This document shows, in pieces, positions 13,734 through 45,954 of a stretch of DNA of 64,000 bases (its first letter is position 1; every line of letters begins with the position of its first letter). Under the pieces are notes generated by a model. It was not told where the DNA came from and made no database searches. It saw only the letters and a list, made by a program, of their open reading frames with translations. A program made the position numbers and the translations under genes. Origin of the DNA: Escherichia coli (GTDB lineage Bacteria; Pseudomonadota; Gammaproteobacteria; Enterobacterales; Enterobacteriaceae); the NCBI RefSeq assembly GCF_050920415.1, contig NZ_CP169309.1. One strand, written 5' to 3'.

Positions 13734-14549
13734 ATGAGCAGACATGCAACAGATTGGGCCTGGGAGACAGATCCAGGCAGCTCATCATTAAAGCTCATAC
13801 TGCTCTCGATGGCTGACAGAGCCGATGAATATAACCTCTGCTACCCCAGCATAGAACGCCTCGTTAAAGACACTTGCCTGAATAAAAAAACCGTGCAGGC
13901 CGGGCTTATATCGCTCATGAAAATGGGGCTTATTTCAGATACCGGAGAGAGAAAGGGAGCGACGAAAAGAGTGCGGGTTTTCTCTCTTAATATAACCAAA
14001 AACGGGAACATTAAAGGCAACCGGGAAGGGAGTAATGAACCCGAAAACGGAAATGTTACCGAAAACGGGAATATACCCAAAAACGGGATGTTGAATGATC
14101 CCAAAAACGGGATGTTGAATGATCCCAAAAACGGGATCCAGAACCAGTCATATAACCAGTCATTTAACCAAGAGAGGGGGAGCAGGACAAAAACCGGGGA
14201 TTCTGTGCCTCATGACCCCGGCGCAAACAACGCCGTGATGAATAACTTTGTTCCTCCTGGTGGGCCAGGGCAATTAGGCAAATTTGTCATGCATGAACAA
14301 TGGCAACCATCAGATGACTTTCTTCGGAAAAGCTCATTGCAGGGAATCTACCTGGACAGTCTGCCAACGGCACAGGAACTTGCAGAGTTCAGAATTTACT
14401 GGATGGCTGAGGGTAAGGCATACCATCAGGCACAGTGGGAGCAGAAGCTGGCAAGGCGGCTGCAGATTAGCAGACAGAAGCAATCAACATTACCTGATAA
14501 CAACGTTCCGCACTGGAACAGCCCTGAAGCGTGGGAGGATTTCTTGTGA
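13734..14549 (+). CDS. replication initiator (lambda O-like role) with internal iterons
   Basis: 271 aa; N-terminal HTH-like domain; repeat-encoded ENGN/PKNG peptide stretch; directly upstream of P-like gene. Confidence 0.6.
   Translation: MSRHATDWAWETDPGSSSLKLILLSMADRADEYNLCYPSIERLVKDTCLNKKTVQAGLISLMKMGLISDTGERKGATKRVRVFSLNITKNGNIKGNREGSNEPENGNVTENGNIPKNGMLNDPKNGMLNDPKNGIQNQSYNQSFNQERGSRTKTGDSVPHDPGANNAVMNNFVPPGGPGQLGKFVMHEQWQPSDDFLRKSSLQGIYLDSLPTAQELAEFRIYWMAEGKAYHQAQWEQKLARRLQISRQKQSTLPDNNVPHWNSPEAWEDFL
13998..14141. repeat. iteron array (AAAACGGGA core, ~6 copies incl. two exact 24-bp tandem units at 14076-14099 and 14100-14123); putative ori
   Basis: Direct repeats read in sequence inside initiator gene. 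Confidence 0.6.
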
Positions 14550-16698: not shown

Positions 16699-16920
16699 AT
16701 GGCTAACTCATTACTTGAAACCTGCAACAACTGGCAGATTCAGAGGGCGGAGATTTTATCTCGCAATCCAGATATGGCAATGACAATCGATAATCTGGAT
16801 ACGCTAATTGAACGTACCGTGCGTTCTGCAATTGATATAGCACGTCGAGTTGACTGGGATTTCAGAGAAGCGGAGCGGCTTGCTAAAGAGCAGGAGAAAG
16901 CAGCGGGTAAAGGAGACTGA
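16699..16920 (+). CDS. hypothetical protein
   Basis: ATG at 16699 two bases after upstream stop; 73 aa. Confidence 0.4.
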   Translation: MANSLLETCNNWQIQRAEILSRNPDMAMTIDNLDTLIERTVRSAIDIARRVDWDFREAERLAKEQEKAAGKGD

Positions 16921-21220: not shown

Positions 21221-21297
21221 TGGCGTGGCATGCAGGATTCGAACCTGCGACCGACCGCTTAGAAGGCGGTTGCTCTGTCCAACTGAGCTAATGCCAC
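21221..21297 (-). tRNA. tRNA-Arg (anticodon UCU)
   Basis: Minus-strand cloverleaf: acceptor GTGGCAT/ATGCCAC, anticodon loop CUUCUAA, T-arm GGTTCGAATCC, 3' CCA. Confidence 0.85.
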
Positions 21298-21619
21298 AAC
21301 GCTGAGAGCACTTAGCCTGTTAAGGCGCCACACTTTGTCGCGGCTCCATAAATGCTCTCATCGTTGCACCCTCGTCTCTTCCGAGGCGTCACACCGAATC
21401 GCCGGGATGGTGAATCCCCGTGCGCGGAATAAAACCGCTCGACTTGCACATTCCGGCTACCTGGTTCGTTTGCCCGAGCAAGGGAGGGTGCCCATTAAAC
21501 GTATCCAGACCGCTATCGGCGCATGTGCCATACGCCGTACTGCTCAAAATAAAATCTCACTCCACCTGTTCAATTTAACGACAAGCCAGTCAGGTTAATA
21601 ACAGGAATGCACTCTCTGC

Positions 21620-23920: not shown

Positions 23921-24616
23921 ATGAATTTATTTGAGCGTTTGCTGTATCGCCGTCTTTGCAATGAGCAACCAGTCGATGGTGGAGCAGCTCCGGCTGCGTC
24001 AGAACCGTCAGCGCCTGCAGGTGATAACCCTGCTCCAGTTGGTGATCCATCACAATCGGAAGGTGATAAGCCACAACCTGTTGCTGATGGCGATAAACCT
24101 GCTGATGACAAAAAGCCTGAAAACGATAAGCAGGATGAAAAAAAGGACGGCGATAAACCAGAGGGTGCGCCTGAGAAGTACGAGTTTCAGGCTGCCGAAG
24201 GCGTAGAGCTGGATACAGAAGCGTTGAAGGAATTCGAGCCGGTGGCGCGAGAACTTAACCTGACCAACGAGCAAGCGCAAAAGCTGGTTGATGCTTATCC
24301 GAAGATTCTGGCAGGTGTGCAGCAGCGCCAGGCAGAAGCCTGGCAGAAAACAACCGAGCAGTGGGCTGCTGATGTAAAAGCTGACAAAGAAATCGGTGGC
24401 GACAAGTTGATTTCTAACCTTAGCGCCGCACAGCGTGCGCTTGACCAGTTCGGGACACCTGAACTCAAAGAATATCTGAACACCACCGGGCTGGGTAATC
24501 ACCCTGATCTGGTCAAAACGTTCGTGAAAATCGGAAAGGCGATGTCTGAAGATGGCATGGTCACCGGTGGTAATGAAGGCCAGCGTAGTGCGGCCGAAGT
24601 GCTCTATGGCAAATAA
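23921..24616 (+). CDS. scaffolding protein
   Basis: Highly acidic, low complexity, between portal and capsid; AGGAG RBS. Confidence 0.6.
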   Translation: MNLFERLLYRRLCNEQPVDGGAAPAASEPSAPAGDNPAPVGDPSQSEGDKPQPVADGDKPADDKKPENDKQDEKKDGDKPEGAPEKYEFQAAEGVELDTEALKEFEPVARELNLTNEQAQKLVDAYPKILAGVQQRQAEAWQKTTEQWAADVKADKEIGGDKLISNLSAAQRALDQFGTPELKEYLNTTGLGNHPDLVKTFVKIGKAMSEDGMVTGGNEGQRSAAEVLYGK

Positions 24617-24630
24617 GAGAGGAAATGACA

Positions 24631-25617
24631 ATGGCTGTTAAAGGCTTAACTGCGCTAACGCTGGCTGACTGGGGTAAGCGCGTCGATCCAAACGGGAAAG
24701 TCGATAAGATTATCGAGCTTCTCGGTCAAACTAACCCGATCCTTCAGGATATGCCTTTTGTCGAAGGGAACCTTCCTACCGGACACCGAACCACCATTCG
24801 TTCTGGTTTACCTTCAGCTACCTGGCGTTTGCTGAACTATGGCGTACAGCCAAGCAAATCAACCACAGTGCAGGTAACCGATTCCGTTGGCATGCTGGAA
24901 ACCTATGCTGAAGTCGATAAGTCACTGGCTGATCTGAACGGCAATACCGCCGAATTCCGCCTGTCTGAAGACCGCGCATTTATTGAAGCGATGAATCAGC
25001 AGATGGCGCAGACGCTGTTTTATGGTGATTCCAGCGTTAACCCTCAGCAGTTTATGGGACTGTCCTCCCGCTATTCCAGCCTGTCTGCGGGTAATGCTCA
25101 GAACATCATTGATGCTGGTGGCACGGGTACAGATAACACCTCAATCTGGTTAGTGGTGTGGGGCGAAAACACCGTGCATGGCATCTTCCCGAAAGGGCAG
25201 AAGGCTGGCATCCAGATGGAAGATAAAGGCCAGGTGACACTGGAAGATGCTAATGGCGGCAAGTACGAAGGCTATCGCACCCATTATAAATGGGATAACG
25301 GACTTGCTCTGCGTGACTGGCGTTATGTTGTTCGCATTGCAAACATCGATGTCAGCAATCTTTCAGAACCTTCCTCTGCCGCAAATATTGCGAAGTTGAT
25401 GGTTAAAGCACTGCATCGCATTCCAAACCGTGGCATGGGCCGCCCGGTGTTCTACATGAACCGCACTGTAGGCCAGGCTCTTGATCTGCAATCTCTGGAG
25501 AAAACATCTCTGGCGATCAGCGTAAAAGAGACAGAAGGCGAGTGGTGGACTTCATTCCGTGGTGTACCAATCCGTGAAACTGATGCGCTTCTGGAAACAG
25601 AAGCCCGCGTGGTGTAA
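24631..25617 (+). CDS. major capsid protein
   Basis: ~330 aa, position after scaffold; start 24625 or 24631. Confidence 0.75.
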   Translation: MAVKGLTALTLADWGKRVDPNGKVDKIIELLGQTNPILQDMPFVEGNLPTGHRTTIRSGLPSATWRLLNYGVQPSKSTTVQVTDSVGMLETYAEVDKSLADLNGNTAEFRLSEDRAFIEAMNQQMAQTLFYGDSSVNPQQFMGLSSRYSSLSAGNAQNIIDAGGTGTDNTSIWLVVWGENTVHGIFPKGQKAGIQMEDKGQVTLEDANGGKYEGYRTHYKWDNGLALRDWRYVVRIANIDVSNLSEPSSAANIAKLMVKALHRIPNRGMGRPVFYMNRTVGQALDLQSLEKTSLAISVKETEGEWWTSFRGVPIRETDALLETEARVV

Positions 25618-25633
25618 CGCCTGTTATTAACCT

Positions 25634-25653
25634 GTGGGTCGTAACAGACCCAC
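25634..25653 (+). terminator. stable hairpin after capsid gene (no T-tract)
   Basis: gtgggtc-gtaaca-gacccac; position analogous to T7 T-phi. Confidence 0.35.
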
Positions 25654-25668
25654 TAATGGAGAAAGAAG

Positions 25669-26106
25669 ATGATCACCGACAAACTGTTGATGTTCTCCGA
25701 AGCTCAGGCGGTTACGAATACCGCGGCTTCTACTGACGTAATCGATCTCGGTCCAATTGACGGAAAACGTCGTGATATCGGCGTGGGTTACCCGCTTGAG
25801 TTTTGGGCGCTGGTTAACACAGCCGCCGCGGCAAGCGGTGATGCAACTGTAAACATCCAGTTGCAGACGAGTGAGAATAACAGCTCATGGACCACTATTT
25901 ATGATAGTGGCGCACTGGCAAAGACCGCCCTGACAGCAGGTAAACGAGTTGTTTCTGCAAAGGTGCCTGCCGGTGTTCAGCGATATCTGCGTGTTAACTA
26001 CTCCGTCGCAACTGGCCCACTAACGGCTGGCGAATTCACTGCTGGTATCAGTCTTGATGTTGATGCCAATACGCCGTATCCGATCCGCTCAAAAGTAACT
26101 GGTTAA
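25669..26106 (+). CDS. hypothetical virion protein (decoration-like)
   Basis: 145 aa, Gly/Ala/Thr-rich, in capsid gene block. Confidence 0.45.
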   Translation: MITDKLLMFSEAQAVTNTAASTDVIDLGPIDGKRRDIGVGYPLEFWALVNTAAAASGDATVNIQLQTSENNSSWTTIYDSGALAKTALTAGKRVVSAKVPAGVQRYLRVNYSVATGPLTAGEFTAGISLDVDANTPYPIRSKVTG

Positions 26107-26107
26107 G

Positions 26108-26452
26108 GTGATATCGATGTCAGGTGAGAAACCAAGATACCGCGTTATGCGCCTCTCTCATATCCATAACACTCTGTGGCCGGAGGGGGCAGAAATCGAA
26201 TACGAAGGTGAGCCTGGTAGCGCACTGGAACCTGTTAACGATGCAGCCAGACAGGCAAAAGCAAAGGTAGCAGGAAAGGTGACTATGGCAGCAACCAGCA
26301 CCAAAATCATCAACGATGTGTCAGATGATGGTGAACTGGATAAGCTCCGTGAAGAGTACGAATTGCTCTTTAACGAGGAGCCACACCATAACGCCAAAGC
26401 CGAAACGCTCCGCGAGAAGATCGCAGATAAGCGTAAAGAACTGGGCGTGTAA
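26108..26452 (+). CDS. hypothetical protein
   Basis: 114 aa in structural block. Confidence 0.4.
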   Translation: MISMSGEKPRYRVMRLSHIHNTLWPEGAEIEYEGEPGSALEPVNDAARQAKAKVAGKVTMAATSTKIINDVSDDGELDKLREEYELLFNEEPHHNAKAETLREKIADKRKELGV

Positions 26453-26502
26453 GCCTCGCGAATCAGACAAGGGGCTTCGGCCCCTTTATTGCAGGAGTGT
26501 AT

Positions 26503-26826
26503 ATGGAACTCGTAAACCTCAAAACCGGCACTGACAGCTACCAGGATGAGAGCGGAGAAACCAGAACTCGCGATGAATACCCGTGGGGGCTGTGCATCAC
26601 TCTTAATAACGACACATTGAATAAGCTGAAGGCACAACCTCAGGGCGTCGGAACAGAAGTGATGATAACTGCAAAGGCTGTTATTCGAGGCCTGTCTGCC
26701 AGAGAAACTGACGATGGTGTTAATCGCAGCGCCGATCTGCAGATCACTGATATGGCGATCGCTCCTGTTTCCAGGGATGTAGAAAAATCAGCGGCTGAAA
26801 CCCTGTACGGCAATGGGGGTGAGTAA
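26503..26826 (+). CDS. hypothetical protein
   Basis: ~107 aa; stop overlaps next start. Confidence 0.4.
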   Translation: MELVNLKTGTDSYQDESGETRTRDEYPWGLCITLNNDTLNKLKAQPQGVGTEVMITAKAVIRGLSARETDDGVNRSADLQITDMAIAPVSRDVEKSAAETLYGNGGE

Positions 26827-27431
26827 TGGCCTCTGTAGTAGAGATCTGCAATCGTGCGCTGTCCAATATTGGCAATAGCCGCAGCATTAACAGCCTGACG
26901 GAAGCCAGTAAGGAAGCGGGGGAATGTTCGCTGCACTTTGAGGCCTGCCGTGATGCTGTGCTTTCTGATTTTGACTGGAACTTTGCTACCAAACGCGTGG
27001 CGCTTGCAGATACGAGCAATCCACCGCCTGACTGGGAATATGCGTATCAGTACCCGTCAGATTGTCTGCGCATTACTGAAATTATGCTTCCTGGTGTACG
27101 CAATCCAACAGCAGCAATGCGCGTTCAGTACGAAGTTGGTGCAGACACCGACGGAACAGGAAAGTTGATCTACACAGACCAGCCGCAGGCATGGCTCAAG
27201 TATGTCTCTCGCGTTTCAGATGTGAACATGTTTGATGCCATTTTTATGGAGGCGTTGGCCTGGCGTCTTGCGGCAGCCATTAACATGGCGCTGACTGGGA
27301 ATGCGGATCTCGGTACATTTGCTCTCAATATGTACAATCGCGTGATTCTTAGTGCTGGCTCGCATAGCCAGAATGAATCACAGGAACCACAGCCACCGGT
27401 TGACGAGTTTACCATTGCGAGGTTGTCCTGA
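26826..27431 (+). CDS. tail tubular protein A (T7 gp11-like)
   Basis: 201 aa, size and N-terminal pattern like gp11; precedes gp12-like gene. Confidence 0.55.
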   Translation: MASVVEICNRALSNIGNSRSINSLTEASKEAGECSLHFEACRDAVLSDFDWNFATKRVALADTSNPPPDWEYAYQYPSDCLRITEIMLPGVRNPTAAMRVQYEVGADTDGTGKLIYTDQPQAWLKYVSRVSDVNMFDAIFMEALAWRLAAAINMALTGNADLGTFALNMYNRVILSAGSHSQNESQEPQPPVDEFTIARLS

Positions 27432-29902
27432 TGGCTATCAGTTGGATCCAGCCCAGCTTTGCCGGTGGTGAGATTGGACCGTCGTTGTACGGTCGTATCG
27501 ACATGGCGAAGTACCAGGTGGCATTGCGCAAGTGCGATAACTTTATCGTGCGGCAGTATGGCGGCGTTGAGAATCGACCTGGTACGCGTTTTGTCGGTGC
27601 CGCCAAATACCCAAATCGGAAATGCCGCCTGATCCCGTTCCAGTTCTCGACGGTTCAGACCTACGCTCTGGAGTTCGGACACCAGTACATGCGCGTTATC
27701 AAAGATGGTGCGTTGGTGCTGAACAGCAGCAATGTTATTTATGAAATTGCCACGCCATATACTGAAGCCGATCTGTTCCGAATTAAATTCACGCAAAGCG
27801 CCGACGTGCTTACGCTGGTTCACCCGGCATACCCGCCGAAAGAGTTGCGCCGCTATGCGCATGATAACTGGCAACTGGTTGATGTGGTAACGAAGAACGG
27901 GCCATTTGAAGATATCAATATTGACGAGTCAGTGACGGTTTATGCCAGCGCCAGCACCGGGACAATTACGTTAACGGCAAGCGCCTCTATTTTTGGCGCG
28001 GAGCAGGTAGGCAAATTGTTCTATCTGGAACAGCCTGCAGTGGATTCTGTGCCGGTATGGGAAACCAGTAAGAGTACGTCGATTGGCGATATTCGCCGTG
28101 CAGACAGTAACTACTATCGCGCCGTTACAGCAGGCAAAACAGGCACTTTGCGCCCTTCGCATACAGAAGGCACATCATGGGATGGCTGGGGCGGATCCGG
28201 TGATGATGATACCGGCATTGAGTGGGAGTATCTGCACAGTGGTTTTGGCATTGCCCGTATCTCTGCTGCAAATGGAACTACTGCAACTGCCGAGGTGATT
28301 TCCTATATCCCTTCGCAGGTCGTTGGCGAGGATAATGCCAGCTATAAATGGGCTAAATATGCCTGGAACAGTGTTAATGGTTATCCTGGCACTGTTGTTT
28401 ATTATCAACAACGTCTTTACTTCGCCGCATCGACTGCGTTCCCTCAGACTATCTGGGCCAGCCGTACTGGGGATTATAAGGATTTTGGCAAAAGCAATCC
28501 TACGCAGGATGATGACAGAATTATCTACACCTATGCCGGGCGTCAGGTTAATGAGATCCGTCACCTGATTGATGTAGGTTCGCTGGTGGCGCTGACTTCC
28601 GGAGGTGAGTACGTCATCACCGGCGACCAGAACAAAGTGTTAACCCCATCATCATTTGCATTTAGCTCTCAGGGATCAAATGGCTCAAGCAACGTCCCAC
28701 CAATTGCTGTGGCGAATATTGCTCTGTTCGTCCAGGAGAAAGGCAGTGTTGTCCGTGATCTGGCCTACTCATTCGATGTTGACGGCTATCAGGGGAACGA
28801 CCTTACTATCCTTGCCAATCATCTTTTTCAGAAGCACAGCATTGTTGACTGGTGCTTCTCTATTGTCCCTTACTCCAGCGCCTTCTGCATTCGTGATGAC
28901 GGTAAATTACTGGTGATGACCTATTTGCGTGATCAACAGGTTTTTGCATGGGCACCACAGTCCAGTACCGGAAAATATGAAAGCACATGCAGTATCAGCG
29001 AAGGAAATGAAGATGCGGTGTATTTCGTCGTTAACCGAACCGTTAACGGGCAAACAGTGAGATACATCGAGCGGCTGTCCAGCCGTTTATTTACCAGCGA
29101 TGAAGATGCTTTCTTTGTTGATTCTGGCCTTAGCTATGATGGAAGAAATACGTCTGACAGAACGATGACCATCACTGGTGGTTCTGGTGAATGGGATTAC
29201 CGCGTGGAATATACAATCAGTATTTCTGGTGGTGCGTACTTCACCAGTAGTGATGTCGGTGCGCAACTACAATTCCCTTATACCGGAACTGATCCTGATA
29301 CTGGCGATGAAGTGTCAAAAGAATTACGTTGCGACATTATTTCTGTAACCAGCAATACCGCTGTAGTGGTTCGTGCTAACAGGAACGTCCCGCCATCCCT
29401 CAGGAATGTGGCCACCACGAACTGGCAGATGGCGCGCCGGACATTTGGAGGCCTGTCTCATCTTGAAGGCCAGACCGTAAACATTCTCTCTGATGCGAAC
29501 GTGGAACCACAGAAAGTGGTTTCCGGAGGTGCCGTCACGCTGGAATCTCCGGGGGCTGTAGTGCACATCGGCCTGCCAATAACTGCTGAATTCGAAACAC
29601 TGGATATCAACATTAACGGACAGGAAACGCTGCTGGACAAAAAACAGGTGATCCCATCCGTTACTCTGGTTGTGAATGCCAGCCGCGGCATCTGGGCGAC
29701 TACGCCCGGCGGTAAATGGTACGAATATCCACAGCGTGAATTCGAGTTCTACGATGATCCTGTTGATGATGCTACCGGAAAAGTAGAAGTGAAACTGGAC
29801 AGTAACTGGGGCAAAAACGGACGTGTAAAAATCCGTCAGCTTGATCCGTTGCCGCTGTCTGTTCTTGCCGTTATTCCTCGCCTTACTGTTGGGGGATTCT
29901 GA
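27431..29902 (+). CDS. tail tubular protein B (T7 gp12-like)
   Basis: 823 aa; N-terminal pattern similar to T7 gp12. Confidence 0.65.
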   Translation: MAISWIQPSFAGGEIGPSLYGRIDMAKYQVALRKCDNFIVRQYGGVENRPGTRFVGAAKYPNRKCRLIPFQFSTVQTYALEFGHQYMRVIKDGALVLNSSNVIYEIATPYTEADLFRIKFTQSADVLTLVHPAYPPKELRRYAHDNWQLVDVVTKNGPFEDINIDESVTVYASASTGTITLTASASIFGAEQVGKLFYLEQPAVDSVPVWETSKSTSIGDIRRADSNYYRAVTAGKTGTLRPSHTEGTSWDGWGGSGDDDTGIEWEYLHSGFGIARISAANGTTATAEVISYIPSQVVGEDNASYKWAKYAWNSVNGYPGTVVYYQQRLYFAASTAFPQTIWASRTGDYKDFGKSNPTQDDDRIIYTYAGRQVNEIRHLIDVGSLVALTSGGEYVITGDQNKVLTPSSFAFSSQGSNGSSNVPPIAVANIALFVQEKGSVVRDLAYSFDVDGYQGNDLTILANHLFQKHSIVDWCFSIVPYSSAFCIRDDGKLLVMTYLRDQQVFAWAPQSSTGKYESTCSISEGNEDAVYFVVNRTVNGQTVRYIERLSSRLFTSDEDAFFVDSGLSYDGRNTSDRTMTITGGSGEWDYRVEYTISISGGAYFTSSDVGAQLQFPYTGTDPDTGDEVSKELRCDIISVTSNTAVVVRANRNVPPSLRNVATTNWQMARRTFGGLSHLEGQTVNILSDANVEPQKVVSGGAVTLESPGAVVHIGLPITAEFETLDININGQETLLDKKQVIPSVTLVVNASRGIWATTPGGKWYEYPQREFEFYDDPVDDATGKVEVKLDSNWGKNGRVKIRQLDPLPLSVLAVIPRLTVGGF

Positions 29903-45928: not shown

Positions 45929-45954
45929 CCCTCTGTTACTACAGAGGGTTTTTA
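45929..45954 (+). terminator. native guaA-type terminator hairpin displaced by the prophage
   Basis: ccctctg-ttacta-cagaggg then TTTTT; same stem as phage-side copy at 6110. Confidence 0.6.

Follow-up and report, generated by a model that had tools for sequence, protein, structure and literature searches.

A stem-loop located at positions 25,634–25,653 of the + strand, between the major capsid and cement genes of a prophage, is most likely an ordinary mRNA-protecting structure. The analysis covered a 64,000-nt stretch of Escherichia coli DNA, here termed the window, and comparison with related phages indicates that the hairpin is under selection and that its base-pairing has been kept by evolution. 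It is not an intrinsic terminator. We assign a probability of about one half to the proposal that it works passively, as a stabiliser of intercistronic mRNA of the malE-malF type at which 3'-5' exonucleases are stopped; both the exonuclease-barrier activity and its effect on mRNA ratios are inferred.

The prophage that carries the hairpin is of the phiV10/epsilon15 type. The upstream cistron (24,625–25,617, + strand, 330 aa, corresponding to phiV10p10) had been taken for the major capsid gene in the first-pass annotation, and phmmer bears this out with matches to the BPP-1 major capsid protein (MCP; 3j4u_A, E=9.5e-129) and to epsilon15 gp7 (3j40_A, 2e-85), together with a match to PHROG 212, 'major head protein' (3.8e-113). 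This gene starts 8 nt past an upstream protease-homologous ORF, and the promoter scan found no promoter-like site ahead of it. The downstream cistron (25,669–26,106, + strand, 145 aa) encodes no low-copy protein but a homologue of the BPP-1 cementing or capsid decoration protein, and corresponds to phiV10p11 and epsilon15 gp8; its product matches PDB entries 3j4u_H (1.5e-25) and 8cjz_B (1.6e-22) and PHROG 427, and no internal promoter was predicted for it, manual inspection yielding only poor hexamers. The ribosome-binding region of the cement gene (25,654–25,668, + strand) contains a Shine-Dalgarno (SD) sequence, GGAG, at 25,658–25,661, 7 nt before the ATG. This SD is unpaired beside the hairpin, the region is almost invariant in relatives and the Tyrion annotation lists a ribosome-binding site (RBS) at the equivalent position.

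Between the capsid TAA (25,615–25,617) and the hairpin lies a gap of 16 nt (25,618–25,633, + strand), which is occupied by an AU-rich, single-stranded linker, CGCCTGTTATTAACCT, that is near-invariant among enterobacterial relatives. The 7-bp stem pairs GTGGGTC (25,634–25,640) with GACCCAC (25,647–25,653), five of the seven pairs being G-C, and closes the hexaloop GTAACA (25,641–25,646), which presents a UAAC core between G and A. The 8 nt on the 3' side of the stem, TAATGGAG, include two T. The sequence is, in short, exactly as first described: a GC-rich 7-bp stem 16 nt past the capsid stop, without a T-tract.

Taken in isolation, such a stem says little. The hairpin has a folding energy of -13.6 kcal/mol (z = -2.26), and when the 54-nt intergenic stretch was shuffled 200 times, five of the products folded equally well. 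Perfect 7-bp hairpins with at least five GC pairs are called 30 times across the whole window, against 6.2 ± 2.7 in shuffles, so that a lone 7-bp stem is unremarkable. The number of 7-bp stems expected by chance in a single 51-nt spacer is about 0.02. What places the hairpin beyond chance is that compensatory substitutions keep its pairing in relatives. Its sequence is unique in the window, with no further copies in the 64 kb at up to three mismatches and no second covariance-model match either there or in the whole of phiV10, which rules out a member of the REP/BIME class. A search of the phage for other hairpins with xTAAYx loops found no family, and an Rfam 15 scan of positions 24,000–27,500 (E<=10) returned no relevant match, only two meaningless lncRNA matches. 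Pairing of the linker with the SD in the minimum-free-energy fold is worth only -0.6 kcal/mol, both sides being invariant in relatives, and a second upstream helix across the stop codon, seen in single-sequence folds, was discarded when the corresponding folds of relatives did not reproduce it.

Covariation was assessed on two alignments. In the first, of 13 relatives aligned without gaps, 96.7% of cells pair, double changes are present at two pairs and the covariation score is 0.245 against 0.142 for shuffled alignments (0/500 shuffles reach the observed value). The second was built with a covariance model from 21 distinct enterobacterial versions, because MAFFT alone mis-registers the hairpins of Klebsiella, Rahnella and Buttiauxella. 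Here, 97.3% of cells are paired and compensatory double changes occur at six of the seven pairs, with a covariation score of 0.547 against 0.263 (again reached in none of 500 shuffles), and pairing collapses to 22–56% in all slid registers. RNAalifold returns the 25,634–25,653 helix alone. Intermediate pair states are also found, U.G in one relative (L066) and G.U in Tyrion. On the + strand of the 21 versions, G.U cells outnumber C.A cells by 7 to 1, and this bias, together with the presence of RNA tetraloop families, argues that the hairpin is an RNA formed on the sense strand. The loops are often of the GNRA (GUAA, GGAA, GAAA, GCGA, GUGA), UNCG (UUCG, UGCG) or UNAC/UMAC (UAAC, UUAC, UCAC) type, or xUAAYx. 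Compared with Tyrion and PAT1, the substitutions in the window cluster in the hairpin and hardly touch the linker and RBS, whereas the flanking genes show a third-codon identity of only 0.43–0.67 to these two phages.

A survey of 206 loci yielded 77 unique MCP-to-cement intergenic regions, which are bimodal: either the spacer is short and the SD abuts the stop codon, or it is long and holds a hairpin. Fifteen of the 77 are shorter than 25 nt and have no structure; among the 52 of at least 40 nt, 46 carry one strong, simple hairpin. In 45 of these 46 the hairpin lies 3–22 nt past the capsid stop, the exception being a locus with a 148-nt spacer (L121), and 13–36 nt separate it from the ATG, so that its position is tied more closely to the capsid stop than to the RBS that follows. 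All enterobacterial versions start 15–18 nt past the stop, with constant distances of 4–5 nt from hairpin to SD and 14–18 nt from hairpin to ATG; those of the BPP-1 clade start only 3–7 nt past it. Distant relatives such as BPP-1, BcepC6B and many prophages present unrelated GC hairpins at the capsid/cement junction and, outside the enterobacteria, the linker is short and GC-rich. On the other hand, epsilon15, AF, Ab31 and many others have no hairpin at all, only a 9–20-nt spacer with a ribosome-binding site; the structure is dispensable.

The same relatives bear on termination. With a U-tract defined as five or more U among the 8 nt that follow the GC core, none of the 64 distinct hairpin versions has one. 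In the window the stem-loop is GC-rich, but its tail, UAAUGGAG, holds 2 U in 8 nt, and a consensus terminator scan did not flag positions 25,634–25,653. A terminator-like hairpin, AAGGGGC-TTCG-GCCCCTT followed by TATT, is located instead at 26,469–26,490 (+ strand), between the gp9-like and gp10-like genes and 835 nt past the capsid/cement hairpin (about 0.8–0.85 kb). Its conservation is 100% across EC.W1-9, Tyrion, Kp phi3.2 and PAT1; the epsilon15 annotation places a rho-independent terminator at the equivalent gp9/gp10 junction, and BPP-1, AF and Ab31 have U-tract terminators at theirs. Of 157 distinct loci, 133 have a U-tract hairpin downstream, the median distance being +801 nt. Given that the same genomes use U-tracts downstream, their absence from the capsid/cement hairpin looks selected and not a peculiarity of the host. 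T7 gene 10 has its own promoter; the capsid gene here has no dedicated one. The likeness to T-phi, the terminator after T7 gene 10, that had been drawn for the hairpin is not supported, and it is the terminator at 26,469–26,490 that constitutes the positional and structural T-phi analogue of the capsid module. A further difference from T-phi is that transcription is presumably carried out by the host RNA polymerase, no RNA polymerase being listed among the 64 annotated phiV10 features.

As a passive stabiliser, the hairpin would form in the late polycistronic mRNA transcribed from the + strand and would act by its stability, not by its sequence. At 16 nt past the stop it should escape the reach of the terminating ribosome. 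Placed where the capsid cistron ends, it would bar PNPase and RNase II, which degrade RNA in the 3'-5' direction. Once RNase E had cut further downstream, the capsid segment would stay capped by the stem-loop and outlast the distal part of the message. Capsid mRNA would thereby be raised over that of later genes, while some 18 kb of essential late genes would still be transcribed; attenuation on the way from the capsid module into the tail genes would be left to the U-tract terminator at 26,469–26,490. For a structure that stops exonucleases, seven base pairs at the energy given above is a low value, and the BPP-1-clade hairpins would be partly melted by the terminating ribosome because they start so close to the stop. 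Moreover, cryo-EM work on BPP-1 reportedly has the cementing protein roughly equimolar with the capsid protein, and such an equimolar need would weaken the rationale for favouring capsid mRNA here, the next gene being a cementing-protein homologue. The earlier suggestion of expression tuning or processing stands in part: the hairpin is best understood as serving differential expression or the processing of transcripts, but a capsid-versus-downstream effect at this particular junction is less obvious when the next gene product is homologous to BPP-1 3j4u_H.

The closest precedent is provided by the conserved protective 3' structures that shape differential decay in E. coli operons, for which malE-malF is the model (Dar & Sorek 2018; PMC5927463). 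Like the malE-malF element, the hairpin is a stable stem-loop just past the cistron that needs most message, and like the Dar-Sorek structures it lacks a U-tract and is structurally conserved among enterobacteria, the mechanism put forward for them being a block of PNPase and RNase II after an RNase E cut. The differences are that the hairpin is not a REP, being unique in the window and unlike the REP consensus, that it belongs to a phage late operon and is intergenic, most Dar-Sorek structures being located within the ORF that follows, and that its barrier activity is proposed. Transcript data for any Uetakevirus (phiV10, epsilon15) were not found in the literature.

An unlikely yet still credible alternative to the passive stabiliser reverses the polarity of protection, in the manner of papBA: RNase E would cut within the linker and the hairpin would then cap the 5' end of the cement mRNA against 5'-end-dependent RNase E, and it may also protect the RBS, 4 nt further on, against pairing with upstream sequence or against ribosomes that come from the capsid cistron. 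The AU-rich linker directly 5' of the hairpin, UGUUAUUAAC, is frozen in enterobacteria, where the distances from hairpin to SD and ATG are constant and the SD is left unpaired, and the intergenic bimodality fits as well, coupling being likely in the short-spacer form. However, the linker is only a partial match to the RNase E consensus, RN↓WUU, and an upstream cut would leave the capsid mRNA unprotected at its 3' side, which is counter-intuitive for the most abundant virion protein. The non-enterobacterial data also weigh against this proposal, with a short, GC-rich linker, a variable distance to the ATG and a hairpin that hugs the stop. There is precedent for RNase E cleavage upstream of an intercistronic hairpin stabilising the downstream message (PMC5927463), and papBA itself resembles the present arrangement in having an AU-rich single strand and then a hairpin shortly before the RBS of a gene for a structural subunit; in the phage, however, an abundant product is encoded upstream too, the combination of AU linker and hairpin is confined to the enterobacterial clade and cleavage is putative.

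We consider it rather improbable that the hairpin is a weak, factor-assisted or partial terminator, or a pause hairpin, releasing some RNA polymerases as a T-phi-like attenuator would. E. coli RNA polymerase is well known to terminate poorly at hairpins without a U-tract, and the tail composition, the 64 U-tract-less versions, the proper U-tracts 0.8 kb downstream in the same genomes and the silent consensus scan all count against termination; in addition, the phiV10 annotators list nine terminators, none of them at the hairpin. The proposal draws on position, since a GC-rich hairpin immediately past the capsid gene is what T7 and LUZ100 present, with strong terminators at exactly that place and a presumed enrichment of capsid message (PMC10134795). 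It also finds some support in the junction of one distant relative (L133), which carries a canonical U-tract terminator, GGCCCGCC-TGCAT-GGCGGGCC-TTCTTTTG, and in the mccA-mccB operon, where an intergenic hairpin sets a high ratio of upstream to downstream transcript (PMC4231749). The mccA-mccB element is, however, a bona fide, ribosome-dependent intrinsic terminator, and the capsid hairpin lacks terminator features.

The linker has peculiarities that a purely passive barrier does not account for. It is identical to the window in Tyrion (16/16) and nearly so in PAT1 (14/16), and its 15-mer core, CCTGTTATTAACCTG, recurs once in the phage, as an inverted copy at 21,591–21,605 on the - strand. This second copy lies 14 nt from an operator-like palindrome, TTACC-N5-GGTAA, in the divergent regulatory region upstream of gp3/portal, and, read in the sense direction, it belongs to the leader of a leftward transcript that is under operator control and carries tRNA-Arg. 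It is matched at 14 of 15 positions in phiV10, is absent from Tyrion and PAT1 at up to three mismatches and is not followed by a hairpin.

We hold it to be improbable that the hairpin is part of a specifically recognised RNA, nut/boxB-like (linker plus GNRA-fold loop) or a translational operator, to which a phage or host protein would bind and so alter elongation through the downstream terminator or repress cement translation. The xUAACx hexaloop is of the UMAC type, with a GNRA-like fold, and resembles phi21 boxB, in which the loop CUAACC sits on a short GC stem and is bound by the N peptide (PMC12550061). The same CUAACC loop is present in one relative (L144), and the GUAACA loop of the window recurs in the BPP-1 clade (L107, L138). 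Furthermore, the linker stands at a boxA-to-boxB-like spacing, its 15-mer is found again in the leftward transcript leader and late transcription must pass the conserved terminator 835 nt downstream. Nonetheless, the loops vary among close relatives and include UGAU, UUCU, ACUC and AGGU, which do not adopt the GNRA fold, the stems are wholly different between relatives and no second such hairpin exists in the phage, while epsilon15, AF and Ab31 have the terminator without the hairpin. There is no convincing boxA either: the linker (CGCCUGUUA) has six of the nine bases of boxA (CGCUCUUUA) and, in common with the rrn boxA, only UUAAC, and a scan for boxA (CGCUCUUUA / UGCUCUUUAACAA; up to three mismatches to a 13-mer and one to an 8-mer) gave no match in the linker. 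A near-perfect rrn boxA at 26,364 was discarded, as it falls within a coding region and neither PAT1 nor epsilon15 conserves it. Finally, a late structural operon is an atypical place for nut sites, that of phi21 belonging to an early operon. It is equally a long shot that the motif CCUGUUAUUAACCU(G) and the covarying GNRA/UMAC-loop hairpin make up a two-part element, a nut-like or operator-like device in a structural operon, that would bring a factor of phage or host origin to the late transcript during its elongation or once it is processed; the effect might be to let transcription through the terminator 835 nt further on, or to coordinate the synthesis of capsid and cement proteins.

It is very improbable that the element acts as double-stranded DNA, as a site for a dimeric DNA-binding protein. 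The 7-6-7 inverted repeat is operator-like, and the small linker palindrome GTTA-T-TAAC has its second copy beside the epsilon15-type annotated repressor operator TTACC-N5-GGTAA, but the half-sites are not conserved (GTGGGTC, AGCGGCCCG, ACGGGCTGG, TGGGCTGC) and total length varies from 18 to 22 nt, G.U-compatible states favour the + strand (7 vs 1), RNA-specific tetraloop families are enriched and no promoter is predicted nearby. A functionless inverted repeat arisen by chance, for which one might invoke the many 7-bp stems in 64 kb, the modest z of -2.26 and the many relatives that manage without a hairpin, is effectively refuted by covariation at six of seven pairs, with 97% of cells paired in 21 versions where neighbouring synonymous sites are near saturation; the independent hairpins at the capsid/cement junction in dozens of lineages also count against it.

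Two further candidates were rejected. An RNase III processing site of the T7 R-site type needs a duplex of some 20 bp or longer and is excluded, as the stem has only 7 bp and those of relatives reach at most 11 bp apart from the 148-nt L121 spacer; the processing site that had been suggested cannot be of this kind. A stimulator of frameshifting or readthrough was dismissed because the hairpin lies past the stop codon and readthrough would add only eight codons, up to an in-frame TAA in the loop. Hairpins of comparable placement are on record in other phages: Tuerk et al. (1988) are said to have described intercistronic C(UUCG)G hairpins in T4, and Hayashi et al. (1989) reportedly found mRNA-stabilising hairpins in phiX174. 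These are extra-stable tetraloop structures between late cistrons, presumed to stabilise the upstream message or to terminate weakly, and they have no sequence relationship to the capsid hairpin.

The hairpin opens no new field, but it corrects the easy assumption that a hairpin past a capsid gene must be the equivalent of T-phi. It is absent from the annotations of phiV10 and its relatives, to which it can be added, and engineers of phages or operons may find in it a small stabilising part, free of a terminator, with which to tune expression. With dozens of covarying versions and clean losses in close relatives, the junction also offers a natural experiment on intercistronic stabilisers. If the passive-stabiliser reading is true, podophages of the BPP-1/epsilon15 type would use two RNA devices within about 0.9 kb, a U-tract-less hairpin that guards the capsid message and a canonical terminator that then throttles transcription of the tail genes.

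The window contains a phiV10-type prophage (Uetakevirus, epsilon15-like) that is 98-99% identical to phiV10, TL-2011b, PAS61 and others over positions 24000-27000. ORF 24625..25617 encodes the major capsid protein (MCP), matching the BPP-1 MCP (3j4u_A, 9.5e-129) and epsilon15 gp7 (3j40_A, 2e-85), and the downstream 145-aa protein is homologous to the BPP-1 cementing protein (3j4u_H, 1.5e-25) and to the capsid decoration protein 8cjz_B. Because the gap to the protease-homologous ORF upstream is 8 nt and no promoter-like sites were predicted 5' of the capsid gene, this gene has no promoter of its own. The first-pass annotation had described a GC-rich 7-bp stem 16 bp past the capsid stop, without a T-tract, and the sequence agrees exactly. 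On the + strand, gtgggtc (25634-25640) pairs with gacccac (25647-25653) around the loop gtaaca, starting 16 nt past the TAA at 25615-25617; the sequence 3' of the stem (TAATGGAG) is not rich in T, and the SD of the next ORF (GGAG, 25658-25661) lies 4 nt 3' of the hairpin, ahead of a start at 25669. The hairpin has an energy of -13.6 kcal/mol as RNA, and the 54-nt spacer folds with z = -2.26, equalled in 5 of 200 shuffles. No Rfam family matches the locus, a terminator scan made no call at the site and none of the nine putative terminators annotated in the phiV10 record lies there.

Comparison with related phages, the check proposed in the first-pass annotation, bears the structure out, since pairing is kept with compensatory changes. 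A first alignment of phiV10, EC.W1-9, Tyrion (Enterobacter), a Klebsiella prophage and PAT1 (Salmonella) displays such changes at stem positions 6 (U-A to C-G) and 1 (G-C to A-U), and in the Klebsiella prophage the stem is wholly different, 9 bp long and capped by a GUAA loop. Further versions were drawn from 80 IMG/VR loci and 43 loci of species-representative genomes. A gap-free alignment of 13 sequences has 96.7% of cells paired, double changes at 2/7 pairs and a covariation score (0.245, against 0.142 shuffled) reached by none of 500 shuffles. The covariance-model alignment (21 distinct sequences) is fitted to the structure and its figures are thus somewhat inflated, though the gap-free subset agrees in direction: 97.3% of cells are paired, double changes occur at six of the seven pairs and the score (0.547, against 0.263) is again reached by 0/500 shuffles. 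RNAalifold returned precisely this 7-bp helix and no other, and slid registers of the covariance-model alignment all fall to 22-56% paired. Evolutionary intermediates are present (U.G in the locus L066, G.U in Tyrion), and the few broken versions (L012, L045, L159) are metagenomic singletons. Substitutions that separate the window from Tyrion or PAT1 cluster in the hairpin and the flanks are frozen, with third-codon identity of the adjacent genes at only 0.43-0.67. This pattern shows that the hairpin is under selection. Many of its loops belong to structured RNA families, namely GNRA (GUAA, GGAA, GAAA, GCGA, GUGA), UNCG (UUCG, UGCG), UNAC/UMAC (UAAC, UUAC, UCAC) and hexaloops with a UAAY core.

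We surveyed 206 loci from enterobacteria, Bordetella, Burkholderia, Pseudomonas, Sphingomonas, Mesorhizobium and many MAGs, which yielded 77 unique MCP-to-cement spacers of bimodal length. A strong simple hairpin (-9 kcal/mol or below) is found in 46 of the 52 spacers of 40 nt or more, in none of the 10 of 25-39 nt and in none of the 15 under 25 nt, where the SD abuts the stop (epsilon15, Ab31, Acinetobacter 4316 and others). A post-capsid hairpin recurs throughout the lineage. Its sequences are unrelated between clades (CGGGGGCGG-GCGA-CCGCCCCCG in BPP-1, GGGCGGCGC-UGCG-GCGCCGUUC in BcepC6B), and gain and loss are frequent, even between close relatives; the loci L137 and L138, whose cement proteins are 82% and 86% identical to that of BPP-1, have spacers of 18 and 58 nt. 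The hairpin begins 3-22 nt past the stop in 45 of 46 hairpin-bearing spacers and its end lies 13-36 nt short of the ATG; it hence tracks the capsid stop, not the next RBS. The exception, L121 (Sphingomonas sp. QA11), is an extreme outlier whose 148-nt spacer folds as a single very long near-perfect hairpin (-74.7 kcal/mol). In phage EC.W1-9 (L002), a mosaic breakpoint relative to window positions 25317-25968 falls in or close to the spacer: third-codon identity to the window rises from 0.59 across the final 300 nt of the capsid gene to 0.91 across the initial 300 nt of the cement gene.

The first-pass annotation had likened the hairpin to T-phi, the T7 terminator after gene 10, a comparison that fails when one rule, a count of U residues over the 8 nt past the GC core, is applied to both sites. 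Five or more are present in 0/64 distinct versions of the capsid-proximal hairpin (range 0-4), against 133 of 157 loci for a hairpin further downstream (300-1300 nt; median +801 nt, counted from the start of the cement gene). In the window the latter is AAGGGGC-UUCG-GCCCCUU followed by UAUU (26469-26490, +); it separates the gp9-like gene from the gp10-like one, is not annotated in phiV10 and is 100% identical in four divergent relatives (EC.W1-9, Tyrion, the Klebsiella prophage and PAT1). At the equivalent junction the epsilon15 record annotates a rho-independent terminator, and BPP-1 (GGGGGC-UUCGU-GCCCCC-GCUUUUUCUU), AF and Ab31 all carry textbook terminators. As these phages and hosts use U-tracts where they terminate, the consistently U-tract-less hairpin stands out as a different class of element, and the T-phi analogy applies to the terminator at 26469-26490 instead. 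About 105 nt 5' of this terminator, inside the gp9-like gene, TGCTCTTTAACGA (26364-26376, +) differs from the rrn boxA TGCTCTTTAACAA at a single position; it codes for ELLFNE and is kept in Tyrion and the Klebsiella prophage and absent from PAT1 and epsilon15. A second one-mismatch match lies at 16892 (- strand).

The 16-nt linker between stop and hairpin (25618-25633, +, CGCCTGTTATTAACCT) is conserved beyond any neutral sequence nearby (16/16 in Tyrion). Its 15-mer core CCTGTTATTAACCTG (25620-25634, +), which contains the mini-palindrome GTTA-T-TAAC, has one further exact copy in the prophage, inverted at 21591-21605 (-), for which we estimate a chance expectation of ~1e-4. The phiV10 version of this copy matches at 14/15 positions; Tyrion and PAT1 have none in their corresponding regions, even allowing up to three mismatches, and no hairpin was found 3' of it. 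The pair flanks the gp3-portal-protease-capsid block. A palindrome 14 nt from the copy (TTACC-TTTCA-GGTAA, 21634-21620, -) matches the annotated 'repressor' operators of epsilon15 (12-27 and 2931-2947). It overlaps the -10 element of a promoter-like site that points leftward (TTGACA 21656-21651, 17-nt spacer, TACCTT 21633-21628), which suggests a leftward transcript under operator control in the gap between terminase and portal. The predicted transcript would carry the sense-oriented 15-mer and read into a tRNA-Arg (anticodon TCT, 21221-21297, -) inside the prophage, after which terminator-like hairpins lie on the same strand (21177-21142 and 21057-21042). Elsewhere, a 24-nt iteron-like direct repeat (GAATnnnCCCAAAAACGGGATGTT) occurs in four copies, three in tandem, at 13988-14140 (+), within the early/replication region. 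The terminator-like hairpin AACCCTCTG..CAGAGGGTTTTT is duplicated 39.8 kb apart (6110-6129 and 45929-45948), probably marking att-derived prophage boundaries, and positions 1-5000, the left flank, are chromosomal (guaB/xseA/guaA).

The best-supported reading, to which we assign a probability of about 0.5, is a passive RNA-stability element like that of malE-malF, here a stable stem-loop at the capsid cistron's 3' end, although we infer the step from structure to activity. After an RNase E cut downstream, the hairpin would stall PNPase and RNase II and leave the capsid mRNA segment longer-lived; E. coli operons widely contain such conserved 'protective structures' (PMC5927463). A papBA-type role for the cement gene, as a 5' cap or translational insulator, seems doubtful: the AU-rich, frozen linker and the constant hairpin-to-SD distance (4-5 nt) in enterobacteria speak for it, but distances vary outside them and such a role would be costly to capsid mRNA. 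Terminators are documented immediately 3' of the capsid gene in T7-like phages (PMC10134795), yet with these U counts a weak or partial terminator is unlikely. A specifically recognised boxB-like or operator element is improbable. The loop is of the xUAACx type (UMAC fold), as is the phi21 boxB hexaloop CUAACC (PMC12550061), and the distant BPP-1 clade has GUAACA again (L107, L138); together with the linker repeat and operator-like neighbour, this permits a nut-like or operator-like reading but does not support it. Against it, boxA similarity is poor, loops vary among close relatives and relatives without the hairpin keep the terminator. A DNA palindrome is hardly credible beside the non-conserved stem sequences and variable total length (18 to 22 nt), which argue against a protein operator, and beside a 7 to 1 excess of G.U or U.G over C.A cells in the covariance-model alignment, which fits an RNA on the + (sense) strand, and so is a chance inverted repeat beside the covariation, even if a lone 7-bp stem is weak evidence because the whole window yields 30 perfect 7-bp hairpin calls with at least 5 GC (6.2 +/- 2.7 in shuffles).

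Of the roles first proposed, a processing site of the RNase III type is rejected on a stem of only 7 bp, and tuning of capsid versus downstream expression stands in part: a selected RNA hairpin plausibly shapes relative expression, not via T-phi-like termination, and strong tuning is counted against because the next gene encodes a cement-protein homologue, possibly needed in similar amounts, and because many relatives lack the hairpin. The mRNA-stabilising hairpin favored here was unannotated until now and is of an already known, intercistronic kind. A minor puzzle, the frozen and duplicated linker motif, is attached to it; its evolutionary record is unusually clean.
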